Source: Chloroflexota bacterium | GTDB lineage: Bacteria; Chloroflexota; Limnocylindria; QHBO01 | Direction of reading: 5' to 3' | DNA length: 64,000 nt | Assembly (NCBI GenBank): GCA_040002615.1 | Contig: JBDUEE010000003.1 | Location: 9,671-73,670 of the forward strand | In this document: positions 21,618 through 53,694 of the stretch, piece by piece | How the letters are laid out: every line of letters starts with the position of its first letter | Numbering within the stretch: position 1 is the first letter of the stretch | Program-made: the position numbers and the translations under genes | The notes under the pieces: generated by a model | Database searches by the model: none | What the model was told of the DNA's origin: nothing | What the model saw: only the letters and a program-made list of their open reading frames with translations

Positions 21618-21655
21618 GTCTTGATCTTCGATCGTTGGCGCCGTAGCGTGGTGGC

Positions 21656-22976: not shown

Positions 22977-22985
22977 GCCGATGCC

Positions 22986-27743: not shown

Positions 27744-27745
27744 GG

Positions 27746-28657: not shown

Positions 28658-28671
28658 GGAGGAGGAAAGTC

Positions 28672-35209: not shown

Positions 35210-36165
35210 GGCGCCGCGCGGGCTGCGGCTGCCTGGGCTGCGGCGCGCTGCTGTTCGTCACGTTCGCGATCCTGACCGGCTCGGTCGGCGTGCTCGCCGG
35301 CAACTGGGGCGGGCTGGCCCGGCCAGCGGTGCCCGACTCTGCCGCCGCGGTGGACGACATCCCCGTCGACTACCTGACCCTGTATCAGGACGCCGGTCGG
35401 GCCTTCGGCCTCGACTGGCCGGTGCTGGCCGCCGTTGGACGGGTCGAAAGCGATCATGGCCGCCTGACCGCCGGCTGCGAGCCGAACGAGGCCGGTGCCG
35501 TCGGGCCGATGCAGTTCCTGCCCGCCAGCTTCGCCCAGGCGTCGGGCTGGGCCGGGCTCGCTGCGGCCGACATCTGCGACCCCGACGATGCCGTCCCGGC
35601 CGCAGCTGCCTACCTGCGCCACTTCGGCGCGCCCGACGATTGGCGCCGCGCACTCTTCGCCTACAACCACTCGCAGGCCTACGTCGATCTGGTCCTGGCC
35701 TGGGCCGCCCGCTACGGCCACGCCACCGCGGTCGTCTGGCCGCTCGATGGACCGATCACCCAGTTCTTCGGTCCGACCGACTTCGAGCTCCAGCCGCCGC
35801 TGTGGTACCGCGGCCGCTGGTATGAGCACTTCCACGCCGGGATCGACATCGGCGCACCGGTCGGCACCCCGGTCGTCGCCATCGCCGCCGGGGTCGTCAC
35901 CTTCGCCGACGAGATCGCCGACGGCGCGGTGGTGGTCGAGATCGAGCACGCGCCGGGCGTGACGTCGGCCTACGCCCATCTCCAGCGCGACCCGCCGGTG
36001 CGCACCGGCCAGCCGGTTACGGCCGGCGAGGTCATCGGCGCCGTCGGTCTGACCGGCATCACCACCGGCCCCCATCTGCATCTGGCCGTCTTCGCCGGCG
36101 GCGAGTTCGTCGATCCGTTGTCCGTCCTGCCAGCCCGCATCGAGGAGGTGCCCCGTGGCCGCTGA
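35206..36165 (+). CDS. bifunctional cell-wall hydrolase: lytic transglycosylase (SLT-like) + M23 metallopeptidase (VirB1/TcpG/PrgK analogue)
   Basis: AAVGRVESDHG...GPMQF (SLT catalytic Glu and GxMQ), C-terminal HAGIDIGAPVGTPV ... GPHLHLAV (M23 HxxxD and HxH motifs); TM anchor at N-terminus. Confidence 0.8.
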   Translation: MRRRAGCGCLGCGALLFVTFAILTGSVGVLAGNWGGLARPAVPDSAAAVDDIPVDYLTLYQDAGRAFGLDWPVLAAVGRVESDHGRLTAGCEPNEAGAVGPMQFLPASFAQASGWAGLAAADICDPDDAVPAAAAYLRHFGAPDDWRRALFAYNHSQAYVDLVLAWAARYGHATAVVWPLDGPITQFFGPTDFELQPPLWYRGRWYEHFHAGIDIGAPVGTPVVAIAAGVVTFADEIADGAVVVEIEHAPGVTSAYAHLQRDPPVRTGQPVTAGEVIGAVGLTGITTGPHLHLAVFAGGEFVDPLSVLPARIEEVPRGR

Positions 36166-36212
36166 GTTCCGTTCCCACCATCCGTCCCCCATCACACCGC
36201 GAGGAGATCGCC

Positions 36213-38555
36213 ATGGCCGTTGAGTTCCCGATTCCCTACGAGCTGTTCCTGATCGTGCCGGCGCTGTTCGGCGCAGCGGTGCTCGCCGTCCAGCTGGGTC
36301 CGCGCCTCGTCGCCGCCCGCCGCCAGGCGGCATACGAGCGGGTGATCGCTACCGAGCTCGAGCGGCTCGAGATCGCGGTCCCCGCCAATCAGCGTCTCGA
36401 CCCCGATACGCCGGTCGAGCTCATCCGCGCCCTCCATCCCCGACAACGGCGCGGCGTCGACCGTTGGGCGGTGGGGTGGCCGCCGTTCGAGGTTCGCGTG
36501 GTGGCTAGCGACGGCGAGCTGGCCTGGCAGGTCGACGCCCCGCGCCAGCTGAGCCATCAGCTCATGGCGGCCGTGCGCAGCCTGTATCCGGGCAGCGAGA
36601 TTGCCAAAATTGAACGCGGGGAAGCCGCGGCGACCGCGACGGCGGTCGGTAGCCTGGCCGCTCCTGGTCACTGGCCGCTGGGCGATCCGGCTGAGCCCGG
36701 ACGGGCGCTGGTTCAGCTCGCAGCGCTGCTCGAACAGTCACCGCTCGATCACGGTGAAGTACGACTGCGGCTCCTCGCCAAGCCGATCGCGCCCGAGAGC
36801 TGGCAGCGCGACCTGTATCCCGAGGAGCAGCGTGGGCGCTCGTTCGGGAGCATCGCCGGCGAGGCGCTGCTGGACGCGATCTTCAACCGCCCCAGCAGCA
36901 TCGGCCACGACGTTCCGGTCGTGCTGTCCGCCGCCGAGCGGGAGGCGCGATCGCGCAAGCGGGTGGCGCAGGTCGGGTTCGAGGTCGGGATGCTGCTCGA
37001 AGTTGCAGGACTCGACGTCGCCGAGGCCAAAGCCCTGCTGTGGCAGCTGATCGACTTCGCCGACGCCGTCGGTGACGGGCGCCAGGCGATCGCCTGGACC
37101 ATCCGGCCCGGAGCGGTCGAACGTCCGCGCCGCGCGCCGTTGGGCGACTGGGAGCTCGCCAAACTGTGGCGCCTGCCGGACGCCGCCTTCGACGACGCCC
37201 ATCTCCAGCGCCAGCGACCGATGATCGGACCGACCCCGGCATCCGCGCCGCGCGGCGGGCTCATCACCATCGGCGAGACGCGCCAGGGAGCCCTGCAGCT
37301 CAGCGTCGAGCAACTCGCGCGCCACATGCTGGTGGTGGGCGCCACCGGCGCCGGCAAGAGCACGATGCTCGTCGATCTGGCGCTGGGTGTGCTGGACACG
37401 CCCATCGGGGCGACCGTGATCGACCCGCATGGCGACCTGGCCACCGACATCCTGAGTCGCGTTCCCGCACAGCACGCCGACCGGGTGCGAGTGCTGCGCC
37501 TGGCGGACAAGGCCCATCCGCGGGGGTTCAACTTCCTCGAGCGTGCCGATCTCGACGAGGCGCAACTAGTGGCAAGCGAGTTCGTGGCTCTGTTCGAGGA
37601 TCTGTGGCCCAAGTTCTGCGGCCCCAAGATGGCGCACTACCTGCGCAAGTCGCTGCTCACCATGCTGTCGCACCCCGAGCCGCAGACAGTGATCGAGCTG
37701 GTCCGGCTGCTGACCGACGACGACCTGCGCGAGAACGAGTACATGCGCTACGTCGCGGGCGACCCGCTGCTGTTCGACTTCTGGCGCAACGAATGGCCGT
37801 CGCGCAGCGCGCGCGAACACGACAGCTCGATCAAGGCGGTCCTGAACAAGCTCGGCGCGTTCGTCAGCTACCACTCGATCCGCCACGTCGTGGGCCAGGG
37901 CGTCAGCTCGCTGCGCCCGCGCGACGTGATGGATCGCGGCGACCTGCTGGTGGTCGATCTATCCCGCGTCGGCGGCGACAACGCCAGCCTGTTCGGTGCG
38001 ATGCTCATCGGCCGCTACTACATCGACGCCGTCGGCCGTCAGGGAACGGCAATTGGCGAACGTCGTCAGCACCTGCTCATCGTCGACGAGGCGCAGCGCT
38101 TCAGCACCCGCGCCATGGACAAGATCCTGGTCGAGGGTCGCAAGTTCGCCCTGGCCGGTGTGCTGGCCACCCAGTCACTGCATGGGGCCGATCGGCGCCT
38201 GCACGACACGATCGTGACCAACGTTGCCACCATGGCCCTGCTGTCGCCGGGTGCCGATGACGCCAGGGAGCTGGCACGCCTCTTCACCCCGCTGGGCGAA
38301 ACCGATCTGCTGGCGCTGCAGCGTCACGAGTTCGCGTTGCGCATGCCCGGTACCGACGACCGCCCGGCGGTCTATGGCGGACGGGTGCGGCTGCCCGCCG
38401 CCGGAGACCCAGCTCGAGCCGCCGCTCTCGTGGCCGCCAGCGACCAGCGCGACGGTCGCCCACTCGAAACGGTCCGGGGCGAGGTGCATCGCCGCGCGGG
38501 AGGCGACCGCGACGACCGACCGCCGAACGCGGTCAGCGACGATCGGGCGCGATGA
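36213..38555 (+). CDS. type IV coupling-protein-like ATPase (VirD4/TraG-TraD or HerA/FtsK-like DUF87 family)
   Basis: Walker A HMLVVGATGAGKSTML, DPHGDL, Walker B LLIVDEAQRF, VLATQS; N-terminal TM; 780 aa. Confidence 0.65.
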   Translation: MAVEFPIPYELFLIVPALFGAAVLAVQLGPRLVAARRQAAYERVIATELERLEIAVPANQRLDPDTPVELIRALHPRQRRGVDRWAVGWPPFEVRVVASDGELAWQVDAPRQLSHQLMAAVRSLYPGSEIAKIERGEAAATATAVGSLAAPGHWPLGDPAEPGRALVQLAALLEQSPLDHGEVRLRLLAKPIAPESWQRDLYPEEQRGRSFGSIAGEALLDAIFNRPSSIGHDVPVVLSAAEREARSRKRVAQVGFEVGMLLEVAGLDVAEAKALLWQLIDFADAVGDGRQAIAWTIRPGAVERPRRAPLGDWELAKLWRLPDAAFDDAHLQRQRPMIGPTPASAPRGGLITIGETRQGALQLSVEQLARHMLVVGATGAGKSTMLVDLALGVLDTPIGATVIDPHGDLATDILSRVPAQHADRVRVLRLADKAHPRGFNFLERADLDEAQLVASEFVALFEDLWPKFCGPKMAHYLRKSLLTMLSHPEPQTVIELVRLLTDDDLRENEYMRYVAGDPLLFDFWRNEWPSRSAREHDSSIKAVLNKLGAFVSYHSIRHVVGQGVSSLRPRDVMDRGDLLVVDLSRVGGDNASLFGAMLIGRYYIDAVGRQGTAIGERRQHLLIVDEAQRFSTRAMDKILVEGRKFALAGVLATQSLHGADRRLHDTIVTNVATMALLSPGADDARELARLFTPLGETDLLALQRHEFALRMPGTDDRPAVYGGRVRLPAAGDPARAAALVAASDQRDGRPLETVRGEVHRRAGGDRDDRPPNAVSDDRAR

Positions 38556-38590
38556 ACGCGCTGGGTCAGGCTTGCGCGTGGACGGTAATT

Positions 38591-38630
38591 GGGACGCCAA
38601 AGGGGGCGCCAAAGGGGGCGCTGACGCGCG
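38591..38630. repeat. 12-bp direct tandem repeat cgccaaaggggg x2 embedded in a dyad gggacg...cgctgacgcgcgc; candidate oriT/nic region upstream of Replic_Relax gene
   Basis: gggaCGCCAAAGGGGGCGCCAAAGGGGGcgctgacgcgcgcaataaacg read directly; in the 130-bp gap between T4CP gene and relaxase-like gene. Confidence 0.45.
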
Positions 38631-38688
38631 CAATAAACGTCCACCAGATCAGTTCGCGGCTGTGGGTCGATCAGAGGGAATGCTCTCG

Positions 38689-39630
38689 ATGAGTGCGGCC
38701 TTCCGCAGCGGTGATGTGCACTCGCGCTCGCACCCGCGTCGAGTCGACCTCGCGGCGCTACCCGCCCGTGACCGCGCCGTGCTGCGCCTGCTGTACCGCA
38801 TGGAAGCAGCGACCGCACGCCAGCTCACCGACCTCGCCTACCGGCGAGCACGCAAGGGGCAGTACCGTCTGCAACAGCTCTGGCGTCTGCGCCTCACCGA
38901 GCGGACCTCCGTAGCGACCGACCACGCTGGCGCTCCGCCCTACGCACACCGTCTGACCTACCACGTGCGCCAGCGCCTCGGCTACCGAACCCGTCGACCG
39001 CAGCTCAGCAGTCGCCTGCGCCACCTCCTCGATAGCCACGACGTGGTATGCGCGTTGGCGCAGCCCATCCCCGACGCACCGGATGGACCGATGCAGGCCT
39101 GGCTGACGGCTCCGATGGCGGGCAGGGTCCTCGGCAGTGCGATCGAACCGGACGGCGTGGTCATCCTCCAGCTCAAGAAGCGGTCCGCCGTCGTGTGCAT
39201 CGAGCTCGACGAAGGTACCGAGCACCATCCGGTCATCATCGACAAGCTCGAACGCTACGCGGCCCAGCTCCGCGATCGGGGTAGCTGGCACCTGCTGCTC
39301 GTCGTTCCTGGGCGCGACCGGTTGGCACGCGTGCGACGCCTGGCCCGACGGCCGGGTCTCGAAATGCGCGGGCACGCGTGGGTCACGCTGCTGGCGGACG
39401 TCCGAAGACGCGGCCTCAATGCGGACGCCCATCCCGCCTGGTCGGTGGACGGTCCTGTCGCGCTCGCCGACCTGATCGATGACCAGCGCGACCGAAGCTC
39501 GGCTGCGCCCGTTGCCAGCGATGCGTGGCTCGACCTGTTGGCCACCGGCGGCGTAGAGGACTTCGACAGAATTCTCGCCGGAACGGCGAGCCTGGCCGTT
39601 TCCGCTCTCGAGCAGGGTCACAACGGCTAG
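38689..39630 (+). CDS. Replic_Relax (replication-relaxation) family protein, putative relaxase/initiator of the element
   Basis: wHTH-like N-terminus LPARDRAVLRLLYRMEAATARQLTDLAYRRARKGQYRLQQLWRLRLTER...GAPPYAHRLTYHV and LRHLLDSHDVVCAL motif typical of PF13814 proteins of actinobacterial plasmids/ICEs. Confidence 0.55.
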   Translation: MSAAFRSGDVHSRSHPRRVDLAALPARDRAVLRLLYRMEAATARQLTDLAYRRARKGQYRLQQLWRLRLTERTSVATDHAGAPPYAHRLTYHVRQRLGYRTRRPQLSSRLRHLLDSHDVVCALAQPIPDAPDGPMQAWLTAPMAGRVLGSAIEPDGVVILQLKKRSAVVCIELDEGTEHHPVIIDKLERYAAQLRDRGSWHLLLVVPGRDRLARVRRLARRPGLEMRGHAWVTLLADVRRRGLNADAHPAWSVDGPVALADLIDDQRDRSSAAPVASDAWLDLLATGGVEDFDRILAGTASLAVSALEQGHNG

Positions 39631-39688: not shown

Positions 39689-40411
39689 TCAGAAAAGTGT
39701 GCTGCGCTCCGCTTCCTGAAGGATGCGGACGAGGGAGATGGTTGCCTGTGCGGTCGCGAAGGCCATGAGGCGTGTCGGCGCCTTGTGATGAGTCAGAGCG
39801 TTTGCCAGGACGATGAGCTTGCGGATGAGGCCCCGAACCGCCGAGTTGGCGGCGCCGCTCAGCATCATGTCTGCGTAGAAGCCGAGTCGCTCCTCGGCAT
39901 CGGATCGTCCCGGGATCGGTTGGCCTGCCGGCACCATCACATCCATGAACGCGACGTTTGCAGCCTCAATGACGATCTCCCGGCACCGCCGTCCGATGTC
40001 GGCCCAGTCGTCGGTCGAAGTGCCGCGCTCCAGCTCACCGATCATCTCAGCCAACCGCGCATCCACCGTCTTCCACGTTGGATCACCAACGGACCCGGTG
40101 TCATCCGGAACCTGGGCAGCAGCAGCGCGCGCCTCAAGATCATCCAGGAGTGGTCCGACGAGCTCGTTGATCTGGGCGCGCCGGTCTGCGTAGCCGTCCG
40201 CCCAGGCTCGATACCACTCCCAGAGGCTGCGCCATGGGAACGGATCGGCCAGGCCGATCGCGTCCAGAGAGAAGCGCAACTCACGGCGCCGCTCCTGATA
40301 TCCATCGTCTACGTCGTCGATGCGCGGCCCGCCCGTCGCCACGGCGATGAGCAAAGCAGCCTGTTCCTTGACGAGGTCAATCAAGTCGTCGAGGGAGCGA
40401 GCGGTCTTCAT
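39689..40411 (-). CDS. module gene B, right copy (paralog of 10441-11430, lacks Tudor-like tail)
   Basis: MKTARSLDDLIDLVKEQAALLIAVATGGPRIDDVDDGYQERRREL... aligns along its length with left copy (~50-60% aa identity). Confidence 0.5.
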   Translation of the reverse strand: MKTARSLDDLIDLVKEQAALLIAVATGGPRIDDVDDGYQERRRELRFSLDAIGLADPFPWRSLWEWYRAWADGYADRRAQINELVGPLLDDLEARAAAAQVPDDTGSVGDPTWKTVDARLAEMIGELERGTSTDDWADIGRRCREIVIEAANVAFMDVMVPAGQPIPGRSDAEERLGFYADMMLSGAANSAVRGLIRKLIVLANALTHHKAPTRLMAFATAQATISLVRILQEAERSTLF

Positions 40412-41358
40412 GATGCGGCCTCGATCTGCCTCGGGGCAGCGGAGGACCGAGCCCGATAGCGCCGCTTGGCTGCTCGCTTCTTGCAGGTCGTACCGCAGTA
40501 GAGCTGGCCGTATCCGAGAGCGCGTCGGCCGACGAAGACCCCGCAATCAACGCAGCGCATCGATCCCCGCGTCGTCGGCAGCCGGGTCGTTTCCAGCAAC
40601 TCGTCGACAAAGTCGATGACAGCGGCTCGCATCAAGACATACATGCGGTAGGAGAGGGCGACCGAGCCGCCCATCCCCATGCTTGCCTCGAAACTGATGC
40701 TCTCCAGCGAGGTGGGGTCGTAGGTGCCGTCTTTCTCCTCGGCGTGGAGGCTTGGGGATTGCTCCTGGTAGTAGGCGTTGATGAACTCCAGGTCGTCCTG
40801 AGTCCACCCATCCCTTTGACTGGGGTCGGCAGGCCAGGTCTTCTGTGCCACTTCGTAAAGGCCACCAAGCTGGCCTATCCAGTCCAGATGCTCGCGTAAC
40901 CGGTAGACGAGAAGTGGCTTGTCGCCGCTAGCGATCATCGCATCGACGCGACGTCGCTCGGCCGGGGTGATTGGGACCCGCTTGAGGAAACCTCGGAGGT
41001 GCGTGTGCTCCTCAACGATGAGAACCTGGCGCTCACCTCCGAACCACCAGTCCTCGATCTCCTCGTTCGTCATGGGGTGGCGAGTACTGGCGTGCGCCCA
41101 GCTGGTGATCGCGTCGCGATGCTCCGTCCAAAGCCGGTGTCCTATCACCGCCGACTCGACTTCCTGCTCAATCTCCAGGCGGTTCTCGGAAGTACGCAGT
41201 ACGTCGGCCATCATTCCCATGAAGTACGTCCAGCCGCTCCATCGCGGGGAGACCGCATCAAGGAGCGGGAGGTATATCCCTGGCGTCGGTGACGGACCGG
41301 CAAAGTTGACGACATCGCGCCAGAGGCCACCTGTCGTAAGCGGAGTCATCGAAGGCAT
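40408..41358 (-). CDS. module gene A, right copy (CGNR-like zinc-ribbon protein; paralog of 9495-10436)
   Basis: MPSMTPLTTGGLWRDVVNFAGPSPTPGIYLPLLDAVSPRWSGWTYFMGMMADVLRT... ~75% aa identity to left copy, same C-terminal Cys motif. Confidence 0.6.
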   Translation of the reverse strand: MPSMTPLTTGGLWRDVVNFAGPSPTPGIYLPLLDAVSPRWSGWTYFMGMMADVLRTSENRLEIEQEVESAVIGHRLWTEHRDAITSWAHASTRHPMTNEEIEDWWFGGERQVLIVEEHTHLRGFLKRVPITPAERRRVDAMIASGDKPLLVYRLREHLDWIGQLGGLYEVAQKTWPADPSQRDGWTQDDLEFINAYYQEQSPSLHAEEKDGTYDPTSLESISFEASMGMGGSVALSYRMYVLMRAAVIDFVDELLETTRLPTTRGSMRCVDCGVFVGRRALGYGQLYCGTTCKKRAAKRRYRARSSAAPRQIEAAS

Positions 41359-41380
41359 GCGGGTAGTTTGTCAGGGCCGA

Positions 41381-41411
41381 GGGGTATGCATAGGTAGACA
41401 AGGGATACCCC
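41381..41411. promoter_or_regulatory. second copy of 31-bp palindromic operator-like motif (GGGGTAT-N17-ATACCCC), 22 bp upstream of gene A right copy
   Basis: ggggtatgcataggtagacaagggatacccc on plus strand; perfect 7-bp inverted arms. Confidence 0.5.
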
Positions 41412-41779
41412 TAGACCCGGCTCGTCGTGCCGGCCTCACCCGCCGATGGAGCCGGGTCGAGCGTAAATCGCGACCTCGCGCTTGTCTTCCCGCATGGGCC
41501 GGCAGCTGTGGAACGCGCCCATCCCTGGAGACTCATCGCAAGAGAGGCTGCCCAGCGACTATGCCTGCGTCGAGCGATACGACAACGACCTTCTCGGTCG
41601 CAACCAACGAGTACCGCGGCGCCAACGGGGAGCGGACCGAGTACCACGCCTGCGTGGTATGAGACTCGCGTGTAATCGACGCGAATCGGGTACTTGATCT
41701 CCAGCGCCTGTCGCGGTAGAACCCTCGTCAAGTAGGATCAAGGTGGGAAGCCGTCGGTGCTGCCCGATGGGAGATCGAC

Positions 41780-44650
41780 TTGAAGAAACCGCCGAAGTGG
41801 ACCCGCGGCTCGGAGTGGCTGCGCTGGGATCCGCACATCCATGCGCCCGGCACATTGATGAACGATCAGTACGCGGGCGACTGGACCGGGTACTTCAATG
41901 CAATTGCGTCGGCTGACCCAGCGCCAGTGGCGTTGGGGATCACCGACTACTTCACCTTGGCCGGGTACAGGGAGTTCCGCAACCAACGCCCACCTGGATC
42001 GCTTCCAGCGGTCCAGATGGTATTCCCCAACGTCGAGCTGCGGCTTACGACCGAGACGAGACGCGGCCACGCGATCAACCTCCATCTGCTTGTCTCGCCA
42101 GACGATCGGAGGCACGTCGAAAAGTTCGAAGAGCGGCTATCTCACGTCCGCTTCGAATACGGCCCAACGCACTTTCCATGCAGCGATCGAGGGCTCATAG
42201 ATCTTGGTCGTGCCTTCCGCAATGACGAAACGCTGGCAGAGGCTGCTGCGATGTCAATTGGCGCCGGCCAGTTCAAGGCGGAATTCAGAGAGATCCTCGA
42301 GCTCTTCGACGACGGATGGTTTCGCGACAACGTCTTGATGGCGGTCGCCGCGGGTCAGGATGGCCTCGGCGGGCTGTCGCAGGACTCTCAGTGGGCGGCA
42401 GTACGCGAGAATATCGGCCGCGCGTCCGACATCATCTTCTCGGGTTCTGAGAACGAGCGGTCCTTCTGGTTGAAGCCTGGAGGGACCCTGCCCCGTCGTC
42501 CCTGCCTCCACGGCTCCGACGCGCACTCGCTCGCGAAGGTCCTGAAGCCGGACGAGGCTCGCCTCTGCTGGATCAGAGGCGATGCGACTTTTGAGAGCCT
42601 GAAGCAAGCCGTCATCGAGCCCGAGCGGAGGGTCTTCATTGGGCGTACGCCACCACGCGGCGCCTCTGAAGGCTATGTGATGTCCGACCTGGTGCTGAGC
42701 GGCGCTTCTTGGATCGAGAACGATCAGCTCTCCTTCAACGACGGGCTGGTTACCATCATCGGCGCGAAGGGCTCCGGCAAGACGGCCCTGGCCGACCTGT
42801 TGGCACTCTTCGCTGGCGCCGACGAGCCCGCGCCGGGCAACGCCTCGTTCATTAGGAAGGCCCGACATTTGCTTGGGGGATTGAAGGGCGTATTGACCTG
42901 GGGCGACAGGACTTCTCAGACAGCGGTTGCGCAGCCCCAACCGCAGCCGTCAACCGAACCGCGAGTCCAGTATCTATCGCAGCAGTTCGTTGAGCGCTTG
43001 TCGGCCCCGGAAGAACTCGGAGAGCCACTTGTAGAAGAGATCGAGCGCGTCGTCTTCCATGCGATACCCGAAGAGAAGCGCATGCAGGCAACCTCCTTCG
43101 GCGAGCTCCGCGACCTACTCCTTGAGGATGCGCGCGCCAGCCAGGCGTTTCACAGGGGGACAATTACGTCCCTGACGAGAGCCGTCGCTGCCGAGATCGA
43201 CCTGAAACGCAGCATCCCGAGTCGCCAGAAGAAGGTCGAGGAGGCCGAGCGGGAGCGCAAAGGACTGCAGAAGGACATTGCATCGATACCGGCCGCGGCC
43301 AGTGCGGAAAAGGCCAAGGTCCACACGGATGCGGCGAACGCTCTTCAGGCGTTGCAGCAGGCCAATGCGGTAAAGGAGCGCCGCGCCAAGGACCTTAGCC
43401 TCCTTGCTGGAGAAGTGCGACGCCAACTCCTAGCCGCAGACCAATCGTGGGGCCAGCTCAAGGTCACCTATCCGGATCTCATCGACGATACGACCTGGAC
43501 CGCGTTGAGGCTCCGGCTTGATCCGGCTGGCTTGCAGCGCCTTGCGGACCTTGAGGCGGAAGCCCGCAAAGAGGCGGAGGCCCTCCAGGACCAGGGGCTG
43601 CCCTCCGTCGCCCGGCCAAGTGCCACCGCCTCTAAACCGGCCGGCCTCGAACAACTCAAGGCACGTCTGGAGCAGGCCGTGAAGGAACTCGGTCTTGACC
43701 GGACCAATGCCACGCGCAAGGTCGACCTGGAAAGACGGCTCGTCGGCGTCAAGGCAACTGAAGAGCAAGCGAGGAGAGAGTTGGCCAACGCTCTTGGGGC
43801 GGAAGCGCGGCAAAAGGAAGCCCACGAGAAGCGGCTCGAAGCCTATGACGCGGTCTTCCAGACCCTAAGCCAGGAAGAAGACGAACTAGAGAGGCTCTAC
43901 GCGCCCCTCCTGGGTCGGTTGACTGGGTCCAAATTGGCGTTCACCGTTCAACGCGTGGTCGGACTCAAGGCATGGGTTAAGAAGGGTGAGGAGCTGCTGG
44001 ATTTGCGCACCGCACCGTTCAGCCAACAGGGGTACCTAGAAGAGCAAGCCCGATCGCTGCTGTTGAAGGCGTGGCTCACAGGTACGCCCACCGAGGTGCG
44101 TGCGGCCATGCGTGCATTCCTCGAAAAGGTTGCCGGTGATGCGCTGAAGTCGCTTGTCCAGAGCGCGAGCCCAATGGATCTTGGCGAGTGGTTGTTCTCC
44201 ACCAATCACATTCGCGTCCGCTACGGCATCGAGTACGAGGGCGTCGAAATCTCCAATCTGTCTCCTGGCACGCGGGGCGTCGTTCTCCTGACGCTTTACC
44301 TGGGCTTGGACGAATGGGACCCGCGTCCGCTCGTGATCGACCAGCCCGAGGAAAATCTCGACCCAAGCTCGATCTATGACGACCTCGTCCCTTGGTTCCG
44401 GCTGGCAGCGAAGCGCCGCCAAATCGTGATGGTGACGCATAACGCCAATCTCGTAGTGAACACAGATTCAGACCAAGTCATCGTGGCGCGCGCAAAACGC
44501 GACAAGCCGCAGGGATTGCCACACGTTACGTACGAGGCAGGCGGGCTGGAGGACCCAGACATCAGGGAAGCGGTGTGCAGCCTGCTGGAGGGCGGCAAGG
44601 AAGCGTTCCGCCTGCGGGGTGAGCGCTACAAGCTCAACGTTCGGGCGTAG
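41780..44650 (+). CDS. single-chain PHP-phosphoesterase + SMC/Rad50/SbcC-like ABC ATPase fusion (candidate defence or DNA-processing nuclease)
   Basis: N-term WLRWDPHIHAPGT...HAINLHLLV...CLHGSDAHS (PHP His clusters); Walker A IIGAKGSGKTALADLL; ~350 aa coiled-coil (Glu/Lys/Ala/Leu-rich); C-terminal signature region and Walker B/D-loop LVIDQPEENLD, H-loop VMVTHNANL. Confidence 0.7.
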   Translation: MKKPPKWTRGSEWLRWDPHIHAPGTLMNDQYAGDWTGYFNAIASADPAPVALGITDYFTLAGYREFRNQRPPGSLPAVQMVFPNVELRLTTETRRGHAINLHLLVSPDDRRHVEKFEERLSHVRFEYGPTHFPCSDRGLIDLGRAFRNDETLAEAAAMSIGAGQFKAEFREILELFDDGWFRDNVLMAVAAGQDGLGGLSQDSQWAAVRENIGRASDIIFSGSENERSFWLKPGGTLPRRPCLHGSDAHSLAKVLKPDEARLCWIRGDATFESLKQAVIEPERRVFIGRTPPRGASEGYVMSDLVLSGASWIENDQLSFNDGLVTIIGAKGSGKTALADLLALFAGADEPAPGNASFIRKARHLLGGLKGVLTWGDRTSQTAVAQPQPQPSTEPRVQYLSQQFVERLSAPEELGEPLVEEIERVVFHAIPEEKRMQATSFGELRDLLLEDARASQAFHRGTITSLTRAVAAEIDLKRSIPSRQKKVEEAERERKGLQKDIASIPAAASAEKAKVHTDAANALQALQQANAVKERRAKDLSLLAGEVRRQLLAADQSWGQLKVTYPDLIDDTTWTALRLRLDPAGLQRLADLEAEARKEAEALQDQGLPSVARPSATASKPAGLEQLKARLEQAVKELGLDRTNATRKVDLERRLVGVKATEEQARRELANALGAEARQKEAHEKRLEAYDAVFQTLSQEEDELERLYAPLLGRLTGSKLAFTVQRVVGLKAWVKKGEELLDLRTAPFSQQGYLEEQARSLLLKAWLTGTPTEVRAAMRAFLEKVAGDALKSLVQSASPMDLGEWLFSTNHIRVRYGIEYEGVEISNLSPGTRGVVLLTLYLGLDEWDPRPLVIDQPEENLDPSSIYDDLVPWFRLAAKRRQIVMVTHNANLVVNTDSDQVIVARAKRDKPQGLPHVTYEAGGLEDPDIREAVCSLLEGGKEAFRLRGERYKLNVRA

Positions 44651-44746
44651 GGGCCGCGGCGCCAGCCGGCATGGTCGCGCCCCGAGCGCTGGCACCTTCC
44701 GCTGTCAACGACCGCGGCCCACACGTGGGGCTTTACGAACGACCAC

Positions 44747-45105
44747 TTATTTGATCGCCTTGCGGAACAGGAGCGCGAACTGCTCCGAGAAGCTGCCCGC
44801 TCGGCGCACGTGGATGTGCGTGCGCGCGTCGCCCGGCCGCTCGCGGAACTTGCGCTCGGTGCGCTCCGGGTTGTCCGCGCGCCAGGCGAAGCCGCACTTC
44901 TCCAGCGGCCGAAGGGGTCGACCGGCTCAAGAGAGACGACCGAGATCTGCACGTCGATGATCGGCTTCGCCGCCAGATCGGGCACGGCAGTCGAGCCGAT
45001 GTGGTCGATCCGCAACGCCACCTCGCCCAGCGCCGAGCGCAGGCGGTCCCCGAGCTCGGCGAAGCGTATTGGCCACGCCGGGTCGTGGTCGACGACGACC
45101 AGGGC
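44747..45105 (-). pseudogene. GrpB-family (UPF0157, nucleotidyltransferase-like) gene, frameshifted and lacking a canonical start
   Basis: LVVVDHDPAWPIRFAELGDRLRSALGEVALRIDHIGSTAVPDLAAKPIIDVQISVVSLEPVDPF | (frame change at cccc run) RPLEKCGFAWRADNPERTERKFRE...AGSFSEQFALLFRKAIK*. Confidence 0.55.
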
Positions 45106-45134
45106 TTCGGCAGTCGGCCTGCCGGCTTAAGAAT

Positions 45135-45166
45135 TACTCACACACTTCCTCACACACTAGGGCTTG
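45135..45166. promoter_or_regulatory. second copy of CTCACACACTTCCTCACACA..GGGCTTGAT motif, 700 bp upstream of Ubl operon
   Basis: see 21586-21617. Confidence 0.4.
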
Positions 45167-45866
45167 ATACCGGCCTTTGCACGCACTAACGTAGATCGTG
45201 GCGGTCGGTCTCACGGCTGGCTCTCTCAAGTAACAGCGGGTTGACCGACCGCCGCCATCACCTCAGATCGAGGTTGGCGGAGTCTCCCGCCACGGACTCC
45301 CACGGCTTACCGCCGCGATCCCACCCAGTGCCGGCGCCAGGAGCCTCATTTACAGGCTTCGACGACAGCTCACCTTACCAACCGCATACACGCTGCCATT
45401 CGCGCTTCACCTCGAACGCGCGTACCGCACGCACAACCACGGCGCCTCCGCCTGAAGGTTCCGGACGGGCTCGGCTGACCGATCGGTCATCTGTGAGGAA
45501 TGCTCCTCGGATGTTTCGCTTCGGCTCGACCGGCTCGCTCTCGATGAGGGCGGGTGCGTCGGGCCGTCTCGGGATACCGGGTGTCCTCAACGCAGATGCG
45601 ATCGGCGACAGCGGGCTCGCTCCCAACACCGGCGGCGGAAATCTCCGCGCCACGAAAGGAGGGATGCCCTCAGTCGTCTTCGGTCGACACCGGCGGCGAG
45701 CGCCCGCCGTTGATCGTTCAGCTCTTTGAGCGCTCTCCGGGACCGAGCTCGGCCGCAAGGCGTGCGGTGTCAAGCGAACGAGGTGGCATGTGTGCGAACG
45801 CACCTCGTGGGCGCTGCCCGGTCCTTTCTCGTGTTCGCGACGTAAGCAAGCACAAGGAGATCAATC

Positions 45867-46103
45867 GTGCAGACCTACGAGGATACGGCCGTCAAGGTCG
45901 TGTACGGCGTCAACGAGCTCAGTCTCGACCTGGGCGGCAAGAGCATCCGCAGCATCTGGAAGATGCTGGAGCAGGTGCTCAACCTGCCGCGCGAGACGAC
46001 GGTGCGGGTCAACGGCCAGATCGTGGCCGACGACCACATCGTGCGTTCGGGGGACGAGATCGACTTCCTCAAGCCGGCCGGCGTTAAGGGCCTCGCTGCC
46101 TGA
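45867..46103 (+). CDS. ubiquitin-like beta-grasp protein (BilA-like / ThiS-MoaD-like), C-terminal ...KPAGVKGLAA
   Basis: 78 aa, GTG start after RBS AAGGAGA; TVRVNGQIVADDHIVRSGDEIDFLKPAGVKG resembles ThiS/MoaD C-terminal half; first gene of E2/JAB/E1 operon. Confidence 0.5.
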   Translation: MQTYEDTAVKVVYGVNELSLDLGGKSIRSIWKMLEQVLNLPRETTVRVNGQIVADDHIVRSGDEIDFLKPAGVKGLAA

Positions 46104-46196
46104 GACATCAGCCGGAAGGGCGGGGCAGTCCGAGCGGCACCAGACGGTGCATTCGGACCGCCCCACCTCAGCCCTTGAGGAAAGGAGCTCGAAGAC

Positions 46197-46979
46197 ATGT
46201 CCATGCATTCGCGCAAGTACCTGCGCATCGAAGGGGACCTGGCCACGCTGGTGACCGAGGTGACCGAGCGCGAAGTCGCGCTCGACGATCTTCTGTCCAG
46301 ACTGGCCGAGCAGCGGTCGGCGATCAGCGGGATGCTGCCCGCCGGCTGCCGCTTCTGGGTCCGCTCTCCCGAAGGGCGGGAGGTGTTCGTGGTCGAACAG
46401 CTCCCCATGCGCCGCCAGGTCGAGTACCACGCCAGTAATCGATACGGCAGCGAGCCGGTGATCCACCGACTCGCCCTGCCGTACGTGGTGTTCGTGGTCT
46501 CAACCGCCGACGGTCGCATCGAGAGCCTCGCCACCTTCTTCCGTACCAGCGCGCTGCGATCACTTGACGATCCGCTCGAGCACAGCTGCCTGCCCAACAC
46601 CTCCGACGACGGCATCGTCTGTCTCGGATCGGTTCATGTTGGCGGTGACAGCCTGGCCGAGCGCACCGACGGACTGATTGGAGCGTTCTGGGGGTCACGC
46701 TTCAACGCCGACATCCGGCGCCATCCGCTGCCGTTCAGCGGTGGCTTCCGGGCGTGGGCGTCTCGCTCGCGACGGGATCCGATGGCGGGCCTGTCGGCCC
46801 AATACGACCGCTACTGGCGCAGCCTGCGCCAGGTGGTGGCCGCGGGGGCCGGCATGAGCCCCACCGACCTGCCCGGCGCGCCGGTCGACGGCGAACAGGC
46901 GCAGGCGACGGTGGAGACACCGACGCCCAGCCAGGCACCGCCTCCGCAAGGAGGTGAGCCCGATGCGGAAGCTGCTTGA
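46197..46979 (+). CDS. UBC-type E2-like protein (BilB-like)
   Basis: HSCLPNTSDDGIVCLGSVHVGG matches the E2 active-site HPN-x(6-7)-C-L motif; 260 aa. Confidence 0.5.
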   Translation: MSMHSRKYLRIEGDLATLVTEVTEREVALDDLLSRLAEQRSAISGMLPAGCRFWVRSPEGREVFVVEQLPMRRQVEYHASNRYGSEPVIHRLALPYVVFVVSTADGRIESLATFFRTSALRSLDDPLEHSCLPNTSDDGIVCLGSVHVGGDSLAERTDGLIGAFWGSRFNADIRRHPLPFSGGFRAWASRSRRDPMAGLSAQYDRYWRSLRQVVAAGAGMSPTDLPGAPVDGEQAQATVETPTPSQAPPPQGGEPDAEAA

Positions 46980-47226
46980 GTCGATGGCCCGCTGCGGGAC
47001 GCTCGAGTCGACCCGCACGACGGCACTGCTCAGCCCGCGCCGAGCGGTGTACGCCACCGATGGCTCGATCCCCGGCGAACTGGCCAACGCTGCCTTCGCC
47101 GTGGCGGCCAAGCTGCTCAGAGATGGAGGCTTCCCCCTCCGCGACGAGCGGCTGGCCGAGCCGAGACGCTTCGCTCAGCTCGAGCGCATCGTCTACTGGC
47201 TGCCCGAGACCGAGGTGGGCTCATGA
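46963..47226 (+). CDS. small hypothetical protein within Ubl-conjugation operon
   Basis: 87 aa, RBS AAGGAGGTG 6 nt upstream of ATG; no domain recognised. Confidence 0.3.
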   Translation: MRKLLESMARCGTLESTRTTALLSPRRAVYATDGSIPGELANAAFAVAAKLLRDGGFPLRDERLAEPRRFAQLERIVYWLPETEVGS

Positions 47227-48062
47227 GCCTCTTTCCGATCATCGCCGCGGACGAGTCCGCGGCCGAGGAGGTCTCACTCCCCGCCTTCCTGGTGGCCCGC
47301 GACGGGCTCTACCTGCGCAAGCGCAGCCTGCTTGGGCTGTCGCAGGTGCAGGTCGACGAGGTGGCCCACCTGCCAGCGGCACGCGAGTACCTCGAGTACG
47401 CGTTACCCAAGGTGCCCGCCTCGCTGATGGCTGAGGTGGTCGGCTTCTTCCGCGCCATCTGGTCGCGGCAGCGCTCGGAGGCGCTGGCGCTGCTGACCTG
47501 GGATGGCTCAGCCTTCGGGTTGATCGTTCCCAAGCAGCGCGCCGGAGCCGCATCGGTCAAGCACCGGCTCGAGACGAGCGATGTGCCCAGCGGGGCACAC
47601 CTGGTCGGCTCGATCCACAGCCACGGCGCACTGAGCGCCGGGGCCAGCCTGACCGACGAGGCCGACGAGGCCGACTTCGACGGCATCCACGTGGTGGTCG
47701 GCGATGTCGATGAGCGGCGGCCGAGCTATTCGGCCGCGATCGTGGTCGACGGCCGACGCTTCGGCTGTCGCACCAGCCTCGTCTTCGAGCAGCCGCGACG
47801 CTTCACCGAACCCCCGGCCGAGTGGCTGGAGCGGGTGAAGCCGATCGTGACCGCACCGACGAAGGCGAAGGCCAACGGCCACGCCAGGACGAGCGGGAAG
47901 GCTCCATCGACGGAGTCGACCTGGACCTCGCGCGACCGCCATACGCTCGACGGCCTCCTGAGCGAGGCCGTCGGGCTGGCCGCCGAACTGGGCGAGAGCC
48001 TGGTCTATCAGCTGACGCCGATCGCGACGTCGGCTGCGAAAGGAGGAATCTCCGATGCCTGA
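47223..48062 (+). CDS. JAB/MPN (JAMM) metalloprotease-domain protein (BilC-like deubiquitinase/peptidase)
   Basis: HLVGSIHSHGALSAGASLTDEAD = JAMM HxHx7Sx2D motif; ATGA overlap upstream. Confidence 0.6.
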   Translation: MSLFPIIAADESAAEEVSLPAFLVARDGLYLRKRSLLGLSQVQVDEVAHLPAAREYLEYALPKVPASLMAEVVGFFRAIWSRQRSEALALLTWDGSAFGLIVPKQRAGAASVKHRLETSDVPSGAHLVGSIHSHGALSAGASLTDEADEADFDGIHVVVGDVDERRPSYSAAIVVDGRRFGCRTSLVFEQPRRFTEPPAEWLERVKPIVTAPTKAKANGHARTSGKAPSTESTWTSRDRHTLDGLLSEAVGLAAELGESLVYQLTPIATSAAKGGISDA

Positions 48063-48750
48063 GCGCATCGTCCTCGTCGGACTGGGCGGCATCGGCAGCC
48101 AGTTGCTGCCGAGCCTGGTCCGCTACGTGGCCTTCCGGCCCGAACCGCGCCCGATGCTGGTGCTCGTCGACGGCGACGCCTACGAGCCGGGCAACCGGAC
48201 GCGGCAGGTCTTCCCCGAGAGCGCCATCGGTTCCAACAAGGCCGAGGCCTTGGCCGAGGTGTATCGGGGCCTGACGGTGCAGGGCATCGCCGACTACCTG
48301 ACGGAGGCGAATGTCGCCACGGTGATCCGTGACGGCGACGCCGTCCTGCTGGCAGTCGACAACCACTGGACCCGTTTCGTGGTCGATCGGCACCTCGCCA
48401 CCTTGGACGAGGTGACGCTCATCAGCGGCGGCAACGACGAGACGGACGGCAACGTCCAGCTCGTCCGCCGCCGGGGTGGTGAGTTCGTCGACGGCAGCCT
48501 GGCCGAGATCCACGTGGAGATCGGTCGGGCCACCGAAGCCGAGTTCGCGGCCCGCGATGGCTGCGAGCGGCAGATCGAGGAGCGACCCCAGTTGGTGGTC
48601 ACCAACCTGATGGTGGCCTCCGCGATGCTCAACTGCCTGTGGGCGGTGCTCGAGCGCGGCAGCGTGTCCTACTCCGAGGTGTACCTCGACGTGATCGCGA
48701 ATGCGATGAGATCGCGCTCATGGTTCCGTCAGAGGCAGCCTGGGGCGTAG
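48055..48750 (+). CDS. ThiF/MoeB-type E1-like activating enzyme (BilD-like)
   Basis: IVLVGLGGIGSQLL Rossmann GxGxxG, ...DGDAYEPGNRTRQ..., 231 aa; overlaps JAB gene by 8 nt. Confidence 0.6.
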   Translation: MPERIVLVGLGGIGSQLLPSLVRYVAFRPEPRPMLVLVDGDAYEPGNRTRQVFPESAIGSNKAEALAEVYRGLTVQGIADYLTEANVATVIRDGDAVLLAVDNHWTRFVVDRHLATLDEVTLISGGNDETDGNVQLVRRRGGEFVDGSLAEIHVEIGRATEAEFAARDGCERQIEERPQLVVTNLMVASAMLNCLWAVLERGSVSYSEVYLDVIANAMRSRSWFRQRQPGA

Positions 48751-50065: not shown

Positions 50066-51010
50066 ATGCAGCCCGTCCCGTCAGCCGCGCAGCAGCCTTT
50101 CGACCCGCCACTTGGCGAGTTGATTGCTGACTACGAGCAGTCGCTGCGCGCCGATCGGCACAGCATGCGGACGATCGACTGGTACCTCGCCTTCCTGCGC
50201 GAGTTCTGCTCGTTCGCCCAACGACCCAGCGAGAGTGCCTCGCTTCGACACCTCTCCACCCCGATCGTCCGTCGCTGGCTGGTGGCTTTGGAATCACGGC
50301 CCATACCCCCAGCACCGTCGAGCCTCGCCGGCCGCGTCCGCACCCTGCGCGCGTTCGCCGCGTGGGTGCAGCGCGAGTACGACCTGGAGCAGCATCCCCT
50401 GAGGAGGCTCAAGACACCGCGCGTGCCGCGCACGATCATTCACTCCTTGCGCGACGCTGATGTGGGCGCGCTGCTAGCCGCCGCTCGCCAAGGCAGCCTG
50501 GGGGACCGAGATGCTGCCCTCATCACGTTCATACTCGACACGGGTGTGCGGGTGAGCGAGGTAGCCGGTCTGCGGATGGGAGACGTCGACTTCGAGAACG
50601 CCGTGTGCCGGGTAGTCGGCAAGGGCTCGAAGGAACGACGGGTGCCGGTCGGGCGACGGGCGCGTCGGGAGCTTCGGCGCTACCTGGCTCAGCGCAGGCG
50701 CCCGCCGCCCGACGCTCCGCTATTCATGGCCGAGCACGGCGAGCCCTTGACGCGGTGGGGAATCCAGAAGATCGTGCGTCGCGTAGCACAGCGCGCCGGA
50801 CTCCAGACACGCTGCTCTCCTCACATACTGCGTCACACCTTCGCCCGAGCCTTCCTCACCAACGGCGGAGACGTGTTCTCCCTCCAGCGCATCCTCGGCC
50901 ACAGCCCCGCGTCGCTCGACATCACGCAGCGCTATGTCGAGTTGCTCGACGAGGACCTGCGCGAGGTCCATCGCCGAGCGTCGCCGATGGACCAGTGGCG
51001 GAGCGGTTGA
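50066..51010 (+). CDS. tyrosine site-specific recombinase, XerC/XerD-like (short form, no arm-binding domain)
   Basis: R...HTLRHTFA (CSPHILRHTFARAFL), LGHSPASLDITQRYVEL (catalytic Tyr) motifs; 314 aa. Confidence 0.85.
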   Translation: MQPVPSAAQQPFDPPLGELIADYEQSLRADRHSMRTIDWYLAFLREFCSFAQRPSESASLRHLSTPIVRRWLVALESRPIPPAPSSLAGRVRTLRAFAAWVQREYDLEQHPLRRLKTPRVPRTIIHSLRDADVGALLAAARQGSLGDRDAALITFILDTGVRVSEVAGLRMGDVDFENAVCRVVGKGSKERRVPVGRRARRELRRYLAQRRRPPPDAPLFMAEHGEPLTRWGIQKIVRRVAQRAGLQTRCSPHILRHTFARAFLTNGGDVFSLQRILGHSPASLDITQRYVELLDEDLREVHRRASPMDQWRSG

Positions 51011-52188: not shown

Positions 52189-52881
52189 TCACCTCCCGCT
52201 TGACCTGACCTGGCCACCGGCGCTAACGCCCGGATACTCGGGACGGTTCATGAACCCGATGCGGTCGAGTGGGAAGTAGCGTAGCCAGGCCCGACCGATG
52301 ATCAGATCGCGTTCGATGGGACCGAAGGAGCGGGAGTCCTGGCTGTCCGGGCGGTTGTCGCCCATGACGAAGTACTCTCCCTCGGGGACGACCCACTCCG
52401 TTTCGCCGCTACCCCGCGGCAGAGTATCCACTAGGCCGCCGTCCGCCTTCTCGCGAAGGTAGGGCTCCGACAGCTTGATCGGTAGGCCGTACGGCGGGGT
52501 CACGAAGACATCGCCATTTTCCAGCCGAACCGTGTCGCCAGGCAGGCCGATGACGCGCTTGATGAACGGCACGCCGCCCTGCTGCTCGAAGCCGGGCGGA
52601 GGCTGGAAGACGATGATGTCGCCCCGCTCGTACTCCCCGAAGCGGGGCGAGATCTTGTCGATCAGGACGTACTCGTCTGCGAAGATGGTCGACTCCATCG
52701 AGCTCTGCTCGACCTCGAACGGCTGGGCGATGAAGTTGTGGATGAGCAGGTAGATGACGAGGGTCAGGACCAGCGTCTCGACGATCTCTAGCAGACAGCC
52801 GAGCCCGCGACGCGAACCGGTCTGCGCGACCGGCGGCGCGGGCGCAGCGTCGCCGGGCGTCTGCTCCGGCGTGTGGGTCAT
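52189..52881 (-). CDS. lepB: signal peptidase I
   Basis: SMESTI (catalytic Ser box), KRVIGLPGDTV (Lys box), GDNRPDSQDSR motifs; N-terminal TM. Confidence 0.85.
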   Translation of the reverse strand: MTHTPEQTPGDAAPAPPVAQTGSRRGLGCLLEIVETLVLTLVIYLLIHNFIAQPFEVEQSSMESTIFADEYVLIDKISPRFGEYERGDIIVFQPPPGFEQQGGVPFIKRVIGLPGDTVRLENGDVFVTPPYGLPIKLSEPYLREKADGGLVDTLPRGSGETEWVVPEGEYFVMGDNRPDSQDSRSFGPIERDLIIGRAWLRYFPLDRIGFMNRPEYPGVSAGGQVRSSGR

Positions 52882-53039
52882 CAGCGCTCCGAATCAACTG
52901 GTCAGCAGCCCCTTCACAATCATGCTGTATGAGAACCCGTGGCCATCCTGCTGGCAGTGCGCAAATAGTAGCGCTTCCCAAATGCCACTTCGGCTGCTGG
53001 AATCACCCAGCCAGTCGCCACAGCCTCGATCCGTGGATG

Positions 53040-53420
53040 ACGCTTTACGTGGGCTCGCATCCGTCGCGCTTCGCGAGTGGTTGGAGTGGCTGGGCGCTCA
53101 TGAGCGGATCGTGCCAGTCGGCACCACCGCGCGGCAGGCGCTGGCGCGCTACCTGCGCCAGGGTGATGACGCAGCGGGCGGGGTCATCTTCCGCTCGCGT
53201 CGCGGCGGCGCGCTGGGCTGGCGTGGCATCCAGCAGGCCTTCCGGCGCCTCAAGTTGCGGGCCGGCATCCCCGGGCGTTGTAGCCCGCACACGCTGCGTC
53301 ACACCTTCGCGCGGGCCTACCTGGTGAACGGCGGCGACGCGTTCAGCCTGCAGCGCATCCTCGGCCACGCGACGCTGGACATGGTCAAGCGATACGTGGC
53401 GCTGGCGGACACTAGGCGGA
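53040..53420 (+). pseudogene. C-terminal remnant (~130 aa) of a second XerC/D-like tyrosine recombinase, paralogous to 50066-51010
   Basis: ...ERIVPVGTTARQALARYL...CSPHTLRHTFARAYLVNGGDAFSLQRILGHATLDMVKRYVALADT; no N-terminal core-binding domain, no proper start. Confidence 0.6.
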
Positions 53421-53694
53421 CGGCCCCAGCGCGGAACTCGCGCGGGCGAGGGCTTGGGTTTCGGCATCGGTACTCTCACCGCGGGCTCGCGGCGCCTACT
53501 CTCAGGGCGTCCACCGAATCGCAACGCCAAGTGAACGTGGCGACCCCTCTCCTCACTTCCGCCGATCGGGTCTCGCGCGGCCGATGCCGGTCGAAGCGGC
53601 CTACGTGGCGCCGGACATCCGAAATCGGGTATTGACCCTCAACCGCAGACCCTGCCGTCTAAGATGCCCTGCGCCCGTATGAGGCGGGAACCGG

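Follow-up and report, generated by a model that had tools for sequence, protein, structure and literature searches.

A TrlF-family protein joining a PHP domain to an SMC-like ATPase head, encoded on an integrative conjugative element from Chloroflexota

A stretch of 64,000 nucleotides from a Chloroflexota genome (NCBI GenBank assembly GCA_040002615.1, contig JBDUEE010000003.1, positions 9,671 to 73,670 of the forward strand; hereafter the window) was analysed with respect to one gene, located at 41780–44650. Its product combines an N-terminal domain of the polymerase/histidinol-phosphatase (PHP) fold with an SMC-like ATP-binding cassette (ABC) head that is split by a coiled coil. The protein is almost certainly a TrlF-family member of this architecture, and the gene is carried within an integrative conjugative element (ICE). 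The best explanation is that TrlF would act as a stand-alone, single-polypeptide sensor-nuclease, gated by nucleotides, directed against mobile DNA and horizontally acquired as cargo of the ICE; we put the probability of this reading at roughly 0.6. The object as such is already known, being an annotated member of a curated and very widespread family, and Ppl, the sister of that family, has been validated as a defence system.

Family identity and domain architecture

The window protein was matched end to end by the NCBIfam model NF045780, ‘TrlF family AAA-like ATPase’ (residues 9–951 against model positions 1–944 of 944), with a score of 572.9 bits (E 2e-171) against a curated equivalog cutoff of 350 bits. 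A first-pass annotation of this DNA had offered a TrlF-like attribution, and it proved correct over the full length of the protein. A 100% identical protein (P0001) is already deposited at NCBI under the name ‘MAG: TrlF family AAA-like ATPase [Chloroflexota bacterium]’; the contig that encodes it is 76 kb long. The motifs that run through the whole family, namely HxH, GSDAH, GxxGSGKT, DQPE(E/D)xLD and THNAN, were invariant in 46 aligned homologues and are all present in the window protein.

The open reading frame (ORF) is real and intact. It runs uninterrupted for 956 codons, and a chance origin was rejected, since at 66.7% GC a run of 956 codons without a stop would arise by chance with a probability of about 2e-10. 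The GC content of its codon positions is coding-like, with GC1 above GC2 (GC1 0.67, GC2 0.45, GC3 0.74), and its start codon is the one used in the NCBI deposit of the identical protein. The single polypeptide of 956 residues described in the first-pass annotation was thus confirmed, and all of the motifs quoted there occur in the protein at the expected positions (DPHIHAPGT at residues 17–25, HAINLHLL at 97–104 and HGSDAHS at 244–250; for the ATPase motifs see Table 1). No sigma-70-like promoter was found, and terminator-like sites were no commoner than in shuffles.

The N-terminus had been proposed to be a PHP domain and not a generic hydrolase, and this assignment holds for four reasons. 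A Foldseek search with the model of the window protein matched RNase AM (9etk), which has the PHP fold. Six residues, H19, H21, E86, H102, D247 and H249, were invariant in 31 diverse TrlF N-terminal domains, phage and plasmid copies included. Of these 31 domains, 18 were matched by Pfam PHP_C and two by PHP (best E 6.1e-8). Finally, the N-terminus of the TrlF member of a Yersinia P2-like phage matched models of CehA/McbA (1.7e-13), RNase RNM and pAp phosphatase. The six residues correspond to the HxH (H19/H21), E (E86), H (H102) and DxH (D247/H249) metal ligands of PHP proteins; G10, T55 and F271 were likewise invariant. The TrlF N-terminus is a PHP-fold metal-dependent phosphoesterase domain with these six core ligands intact and Tyr at the motif II position. 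A full-length profile searched against PDB sequences returned only Rad50, SMC and ABC chains and no PHP protein, and a phmmer search with the phage member gave only weak matches to RNase AM and amidohydrolases (E 0.05–1.6). The sole match of an N-terminal profile to PDB sequences, stathmin, was judged spurious.

The remainder of the protein has the features of an SMC/Rad50-type ATPase. A coiled coil separates the two lobes of the head, in which Walker A, Q-loop, signature, Walker B Asp, D-loop and H-loop are all present. Secondary structure assigned with DSSP on an AF2 model consisted of two long helices, at residues 440–563 and 584–706, with a low-pLDDT apex at 611–617. The helical insert between the half-heads measures about 276 residues (440–715), which replaces a first estimate of about 350, and A, L, E, R, Q and K make up 65% of it. 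Because the coiled coil is free of Cys, as are residues 264–932 as a whole, TrlF has no zinc hook of the Rad50/SbcC type. An SMC hinge was likewise absent from the AF2 model, in which the apex (564–622) is a short loop of low confidence, and no kleisin-like gene was found among the neighbours of the window gene. In Foldseek searches the joint and coiled coil matched Smc, MukB, JetC and RecN, and the best fold matches were SMC heads. Rad50 heads were also among the fold matches, and the best PDB sequence match of the window protein was Rad50 (E 7.6e-5). A fold search of BFVD matched only phage Rad50/gp46-like proteins and was uninformative.

The Walker B and D-loop motif reported in the first-pass annotation is present, with the correction that a Gln stands at the position of the catalytic Glu. 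Q855 occupies this canonical site, HMMER aligning ‘viDqPeenLD’ to ‘ILDEPTVYLD’ of Rad50. The D-Q-P-E sequence occurs in all 120 of the homologues listed, as well as in E. coli Ppl (LLLDQPEDDLD), the TrlF of an IncC plasmid, an S. suis prophage protein and a Listeria contig, and the Glu-to-Gln replacement was present in every TrlF, Ppl and Spaf_1101-like sequence examined. As a separate observation, DQPE is the naturally occurring counterpart of the ‘EQ’ mutation by which SMC and ABC proteins are trapped in experimental work.

The relationship to Ppl was assessed with WP_000233113.1, an annotated Ppl from an E. coli IncF plasmid; no Ppl was found in the phage collection. Alignment of the TrlF family to this protein with hhalign gave a probability of 99.8% and an E-value of 6e-28 over 625 columns (residues 239–950 against 202–889), and the PADLOC Ppl model gave a partial match to the window protein (E 2.4e-26). 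With BLASTP, the C-terminal 152 residues were 32% identical and the PHP-to-ABC junction 29% identical, and the N-terminal HxH segments also aligned. Judged by these alignments, the homology of TrlF and Ppl starts at the last PHP motif and continues to the C-terminus, the two share the same architecture, and the window protein is no Ppl equivalog.

Genomic setting and spread of the family

To place the gene in context, 91 loci were compared, comprising six metagenome or genome contigs with close homologues, four plasmid or phage records, 80 species-representative genomes and the window. In BLAST clustering of the flanking ORFs each neighbour family occurred in 10 loci at most, and in a Pfam census of 141 immediate TrlF neighbours no family exceeded six. 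What recurs beside TrlF is a class of genes with no fixed partner, among them HsdR/M/S, AbiEii, putAbiC, nSTAND3, Mrr, BrxL, AAA_15/21 ATPases, HipA, integrases and relaxases. In the two closest long-contig homologues, with 63% and 57% identity, a CAP12/Pycsar-type TIR gene lies divergently and directly upstream of TrlF (L001:7378–7827 and L002:6958–7680, respectively, both on the minus strand); no equivalent was detected in the window. TrlF was also found nested in type I restriction-modification (R-M) operons on a contig of a metagenome-assembled genome, a metagenome contig and a Klebsiella IncC plasmid (L003, L006 and L094). The gene order on the IncC plasmid (NZ_CP079631.1) is HsdR – TrlF – TrlG-like gene – HsdS – AAA – HsdM, and a TrlG-like gene follows TrlF on the contig of the metagenome-assembled genome also. 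One homologue of 1,449 residues (P0037) is a fusion of TrlF with an HsdS (Methylase_S) domain.

An 872-residue TrlF member is encoded by Yersinia phage vB_YenM_42.18 (OM046624.1, L009:1754–4372), in the gpA–gpQ variable region of P2-like phages. This product bears the name ‘chromosome partition protein’; its reading as an SMC protein was rejected, as it matches the TrlF family at 464.8 bits. A Vibrio phage-like element carries a copy 65.6% identical to it. Full-length TrlF was found on 35 plasmids, hundreds more having shorter-clade TrlF or Ppl genes, and 825 of the 1,145 plasmid records with any match are conjugative. At least 585 species genomes carry TrlF, from Pseudomonadota, Chloroflexota, Actinomycetota, Acidobacteriota, Planctomycetota, Bacteroidota and other groups, and at E<=1e-30 the family falls into 1,709 clusters at 50% identity. 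Horizontal transfer has shaped this distribution, which is patchy. Homologues are not housekeeping genes, being found in variable islands, plasmids and phages without a conserved partner, in line with the view of TrlF taken in the first-pass annotation.

In the window, TrlF lies between the relaxase and the integrase of the conjugative element (Table 1). The patch from 40000 to 46000 has a GC content of 0.625–0.644 versus 0.69–0.72 in the flanks, and the GC3 of TrlF is 0.74 versus 0.85–0.91 for most neighbouring ICE genes. This low-GC patch is consistent with separately acquired cargo, gained horizontally. The short ORF directly downstream of TrlF is probably a pseudogene remnant; only its beginning resembles GrpB (by way of NF002879, a dephospho-CoA kinase model), and the rest is of low complexity.

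Downstream of TrlF lies a four-gene operon encoding a ubiquitin-like protein (Ubl), an E2, a JAB protein and an E1 (45867–48750, plus strand). It gave sub-threshold matches to PRTRC_A (42.9 bits versus 101.8), PRTRC_B and PRTRC_ThiF and weak PADLOC matches to E1-E2/BilD, on the strength of which it may be a divergent PRTRC/Bil-like mobile-element cassette. Its adjacency had been read as a hint of defence. None of the neighbours in the window patch, the Ubl operon included, recurs beside TrlF in the 90 other loci, so this adjacency is uninformative on TrlF function.

A direct repeat of 36 nt is present at 21590–21625 and 45133–45168, the copies being 89% identical; it contains a tandem pair of CTCACACA half-sites and, after these, CTTGAT. 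The first ORF of the conjugation module is preceded closely by one copy, the other copy is located between TrlF and the Ubl/E2 operon, and the repeat is possibly an operator or promoter shared by two ICE operons. For the tyrosine recombinase at 52754–53635, the match to the Phage_integrase model is confined to the C-terminal part of that model. A search for a tRNA gene that might mark an att site found none anywhere in the window.

Table 1. Positions of the trlF gene, its domains and motifs, and the surrounding features of the window (res, residues of the TrlF protein)
Feature	Position	Strand	Remarks
trlF-family gene	41780..44650	+	956 aa, stop codon included; TTG start
Shine-Dalgarno-like GGGAGA	41769..41774	+	5 nt upstream of TTG start; read from sequence
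PHP fold domain, res ~9-290	41804..42649	+
PHP motif I, D17-P-H19-I-H21 (HxH metal ligands)	41828..41842	+	H19/H21 invariant; aligns to FDFHNH of E. coli Ppl
PHP central ligands, E86 (NVELR) to H102 (INLHLL)	42035..42085	+	E86, H102 invariant
PHP motif IV, H244-G-S-D247-A-H249	42509..42526	+	D247, H249 invariant; aligns to RGSDAH of Ppl
ABC head N-lobe, res ~300-435	42677..43084	+	Pfam AAA_23/AAA_15/ABC_tran P-loop matches; Rad50 PDB profile match 304-366
Walker A GAKGSGKT, res 328-335	42761-42784	+	G328, G331, S332, K334, T335 invariant
Q-loop Q401	42980-42982	+	invariant among aligned homologues
Antiparallel coiled-coil insert, res ~440-715	43097..43924	+	apex ~564-622; no CxxC hook, no hinge
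ABC head C-lobe, res ~716-951	43925..44632	+
ABC signature-like LSPGTRG, res 827-833	44258..44278	+	S828, G830, G833 invariant; aligns to Rad50 signature region
Walker B and D-loop LVIDQPEENLD, res 851-861	44330..44362	+	Q855 at nt 44342-44344
H-loop VMVTHNANL, res 883-891	44426..44452	+	T886, H887, N888 invariant
Conjugation module	~21656-39630	+	Tad-like pilus genes, PrgI, ATPases, coupling protein, relaxase
PrgI	24083	+	conjugation module
CpaF-type T2SSE (Tad-like pilus) ATPase	25594	+	conjugation module
Two T2SSF (platform protein) genes	26868 and 27707	+	conjugation module
CpaB	32085	+	conjugation module
VirB4/TraG-like ATPase	33002	+	conjugation module
M23/SLT hydrolase	35206	+	conjugation module
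Coupling protein	36213	+	conjugation module
Replic_Relax relaxase	38224-39630	+	conjugation module
Two divergent ORFs	39689-40546 and 40408-41358	-	no family matches; in low-GC patch with TrlF
Short ORF, GrpB fragment	44626-45021	-	first ~46 residues match GrpB-like C-terminal part, NF002879, E 2e-10
ThiS/MoaD-like Ubl, 78 aa	45867-46103	+	Ubl operon; missing from first ORF list
E2-like gene	46197-46979	+	Ubl operon; Prok-E2_D at 9.7e-5
JAB gene	47223-48062	+	Ubl operon
ThiF E1	48055-48750	+	Ubl operon
AAA_16 ATPase	downstream of TrlF		
Tyrosine recombinases	50066-51010 and 52754-53635	+	the first is the integrase of the conjugative element; share 149-nt repeat, 70% identity (50754-50902, 53220-53368)

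Proposed mode of action and its alternatives

A defence or anti-mobile-DNA role for TrlF, argued from the sister family and from the genomic context, appears rather probable. Ppl is reported to be a 3'-5' exonuclease of single-stranded DNA that nucleoside triphosphates (NTPs) inhibit by occupying the PHP and NTPase domains, and that becomes active upon depletion of the NTP pool together with 3'-OH ends made by phage homing endonucleases (review PMC12904381). In the mechanism proposed for TrlF, two protomers would engage their heads around bound nucleotide to form a homodimer. As the catalytic base is missing, Gln855 would give rise to a long-lived nucleotide-bound state, a switch whose occupancy would report the NTP pool and would not serve as motor fuel. 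Binding of NTPs would hold the PHP nuclease off, as reported for Ppl, and falling NTP pools and/or DNA 3' ends exposed by an invading phage or plasmid would license exonucleolytic degradation by the PHP domain, either of the invading DNA or of all DNA. The outcome would be protection of the host and of the element which carries the gene. By itself this specific gating logic, taken over from Ppl, is tentative and stands a little short of even odds.

A number of observations weigh against the proposal of a nucleotide-gated nuclease. The effect ascribed to Gln855 on ATP hydrolysis is carried over from E-to-Q mutants of other ABC and SMC proteins, and E857 or E858 might compensate for it. In the window protein Pfam finds no PHP or PHP_C domain at E<=1, the only matches being ABC/AAA. 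The position of PHP motif II (‘TDH’) reads D56-Y57; at least 90% of the clade has Tyr here, and the phage member alone has His. Having Tyr57 in place of the His could modify the metal site or change which substrate is used. Against the Ppl model NF042955 the window protein scores 108 bits (E 3.5e-31), far from the equivalog cutoff of 1000 bits, so that the Ppl mechanism would have to be carried across families. The growth-arrest phenotype of Photorhabdus was mapped to TrlG, with trlF free of suppressor mutations (PMC7554251). Finally, no defence or nuclease assay of any TrlF-family protein was found, a literature search for ‘TrlF family’ giving no paper.

TrlF could alternatively serve the conjugative element itself, through competition with or exclusion of plasmids and ICEs, processing of the ends of transferred DNA, or partition-like maintenance. 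The location between relaxase and integrase would suit such a role, as would the full-length copies on plasmids, the conjugative majority among the plasmid records and the relaxase genes (TraI_2, MobA_MobL) seen among the immediate TrlF neighbours. However, conjugation genes are not conserved neighbours, no family exceeding six of the 141; the family is also found in chromosomal islands, the P2-like phage hotspot and R-M operons; and the low-GC cargo patch is distinct from the ICE backbone, which together make this role unlikely. The name of the family raises the matter of a stress-triggered, toxin-like module of growth arrest. TrlF is named after the ‘temperature restriction locus’ trlG-trlF-trlR of Photorhabdus laumondii, an operon which causes growth arrest at 36 °C and whose TrlF is annotated as a histidinol phosphatase (PMC7554251), and TrlG-like genes (HATPase_c_4 / ‘RNA-binding domain’) follow TrlF in some loci. 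Such a module is nevertheless quite improbable for TrlF, as every suppressor mutation fell in trlG (PMC7554251) and the 91 loci show no conservation of TrlG beside TrlF. No homologue of TrlG or TrlR was found near the window TrlF, the flanking ORFs having neither the AlbA_2 and HATPase_c_4 domains of TrlG nor those of the small regulator TrlR. Arrest phenotypes would also fit an abortive-infection defence.

The PHP superfamily includes histidinol-phosphate phosphatases, 3',5'-bisphosphate nucleotidases and RNase AM, and in keeping with this the PHP domain of TrlF might be a phosphatase or an (oligo)nucleotide hydrolase acting on pAp, nanoRNA or a signalling nucleotide, with the ABC part as its regulator. 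One TrlF member weakly matches such models, Foldseek and phmmer gave matches to structures of RNase AM and pAp phosphatase, and the motif II His is replaced by Tyr57. We consider this very unlikely nonetheless, given that the domain is fused to an SMC-like, DNA-associated head and that the homologue Ppl is reported to be an exonuclease (review PMC12904381). Still less can be said for a housekeeping enzyme of DNA double-strand-break repair, a fused equivalent of SbcCD or Mre11-Rad50. It would explain the union of a nuclease with an SMC/Rad50-like head and coiled coil, along with the Rad50 matches in sequence and fold. The coiled coil, however, lacks a CxxC zinc hook or any Cys, the catalytic Glu of Walker B is absent, and the distribution is patchy and horizontally shaped, with variable mobile neighbourhoods and with the window gene lying in a cargo patch of low GC on an ICE; the chance of a repair enzyme is accordingly very slim.

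The wider form of the sensor-nuclease reading, in which the TrlF clade is a very widespread stand-alone immune nuclease and its head a natural ‘EQ’, hydrolysis-impaired sensor of nucleotide occupancy, is somewhat less likely than not. If it is true, such immune nucleases would span at least 1,700 clusters at 50% identity and at least 585 species, as well as clinical plasmids of IncC/IncF type and a P2-like phage hotspot, and on the window ICE TrlF would defend its host as well as the element. The frequent location of TrlF within type I R-M operons, and even its fusion to HsdS, could then make it a second-line effector when restriction fails. The Gln found in Walker B of every sequence examined suggests that these SMC-like heads may be nucleotide-gated switches and not motors. 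The window instance adds little here. The Walker B Gln, the absence of a fixed partner and the recurrent R-M nesting are useful observations at the level of the family. It is the family that merits attention, for its abundance on conjugative plasmids (clinical Klebsiella and E. coli plasmids among them), ICEs and phage hotspots.

Comparison with known systems

Several defence systems couple an ABC-type ATPase to a nuclease in defence islands, as do Gabija GajA, OLD, PARIS AriA and Septu PtuA. Lamassu likewise combines an SMC-like ATPase with a nuclease effector in such islands; a Lamassu structure was among the Foldseek matches, and the PADLOC LmuB model aligned to residues 313–904 (E 1.2e-7). 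All of these matches are weak, however, and the TrlF effector is a PHP domain fused to the ATPase, whereas those of Lamassu, GajA, OLD, AriA and PtuA are Cap4, Mrr, TOPRIM or HNH domains. No partner gene of LmuA or LmuC type lies by the window TrlF, nor is there one as a conserved neighbour in the loci compared.

With Rad50/SbcC and Mre11/SbcD, TrlF has in common an ABC head with an antiparallel coiled coil between its halves and a metal-dependent nuclease to which this head is coupled. The nuclease of TrlF is of PHP fold and fused in cis, unlike the calcineurin-like phosphoesterase of Mre11/SbcD, and no gene for the latter was found among the ORFs flanking the window TrlF. In comparison to Rad50 the coiled coil is much shorter and without a zinc hook, Walker B has a Gln, and TrlF is not a gene of the core genome. 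The description of the protein as SbcC/Rad50 with a PHP nuclease in place of SbcD, given in the first-pass annotation, is therefore retained only as an analogy, the zinc hook being absent, the best fold matches being SMC heads and Walker B carrying Gln.

The founding TrlF of P. laumondii (PluDJC_RS01880) resembles the window protein in its PHP, ABC and coiled-coil parts and in the motifs DQPE(E/D)xLD, THNAN and GSDAH. It belongs to the trlG-trlF-trlR operon, whereas TrlF stands alone in the window and in most of the 91 loci. The clade of the window protein is also longer, at about 956 residues versus about 870–880 for the enterobacterial, phage and IncC members, and has Tyr in place of His in PHP motif II. 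Spaf_1101 (NF045781), another sister family, shares the C-terminal head and DQPE, and an S. suis prophage provides an example of it; the window protein scores 122 bits against this model, below the cutoff of 475, and the Spaf_1101 family is shorter, at about 835 residues.

Ppl differs from TrlF in that pairwise similarity is seen only over about 260 residues at about 30% identity, and in that the anti-phage phenotype, exonuclease activity and NTP gating are known only for E. coli Ppl. The two nevertheless agree in the order of their domains and motifs, from the HxH and GSDAH motifs of the PHP domain through the GSGK(S/T) Walker A and a Walker B with a natural Gln to the EGG-x-AFR tail at the C-terminus, and both are organised as single genes on mobile elements.

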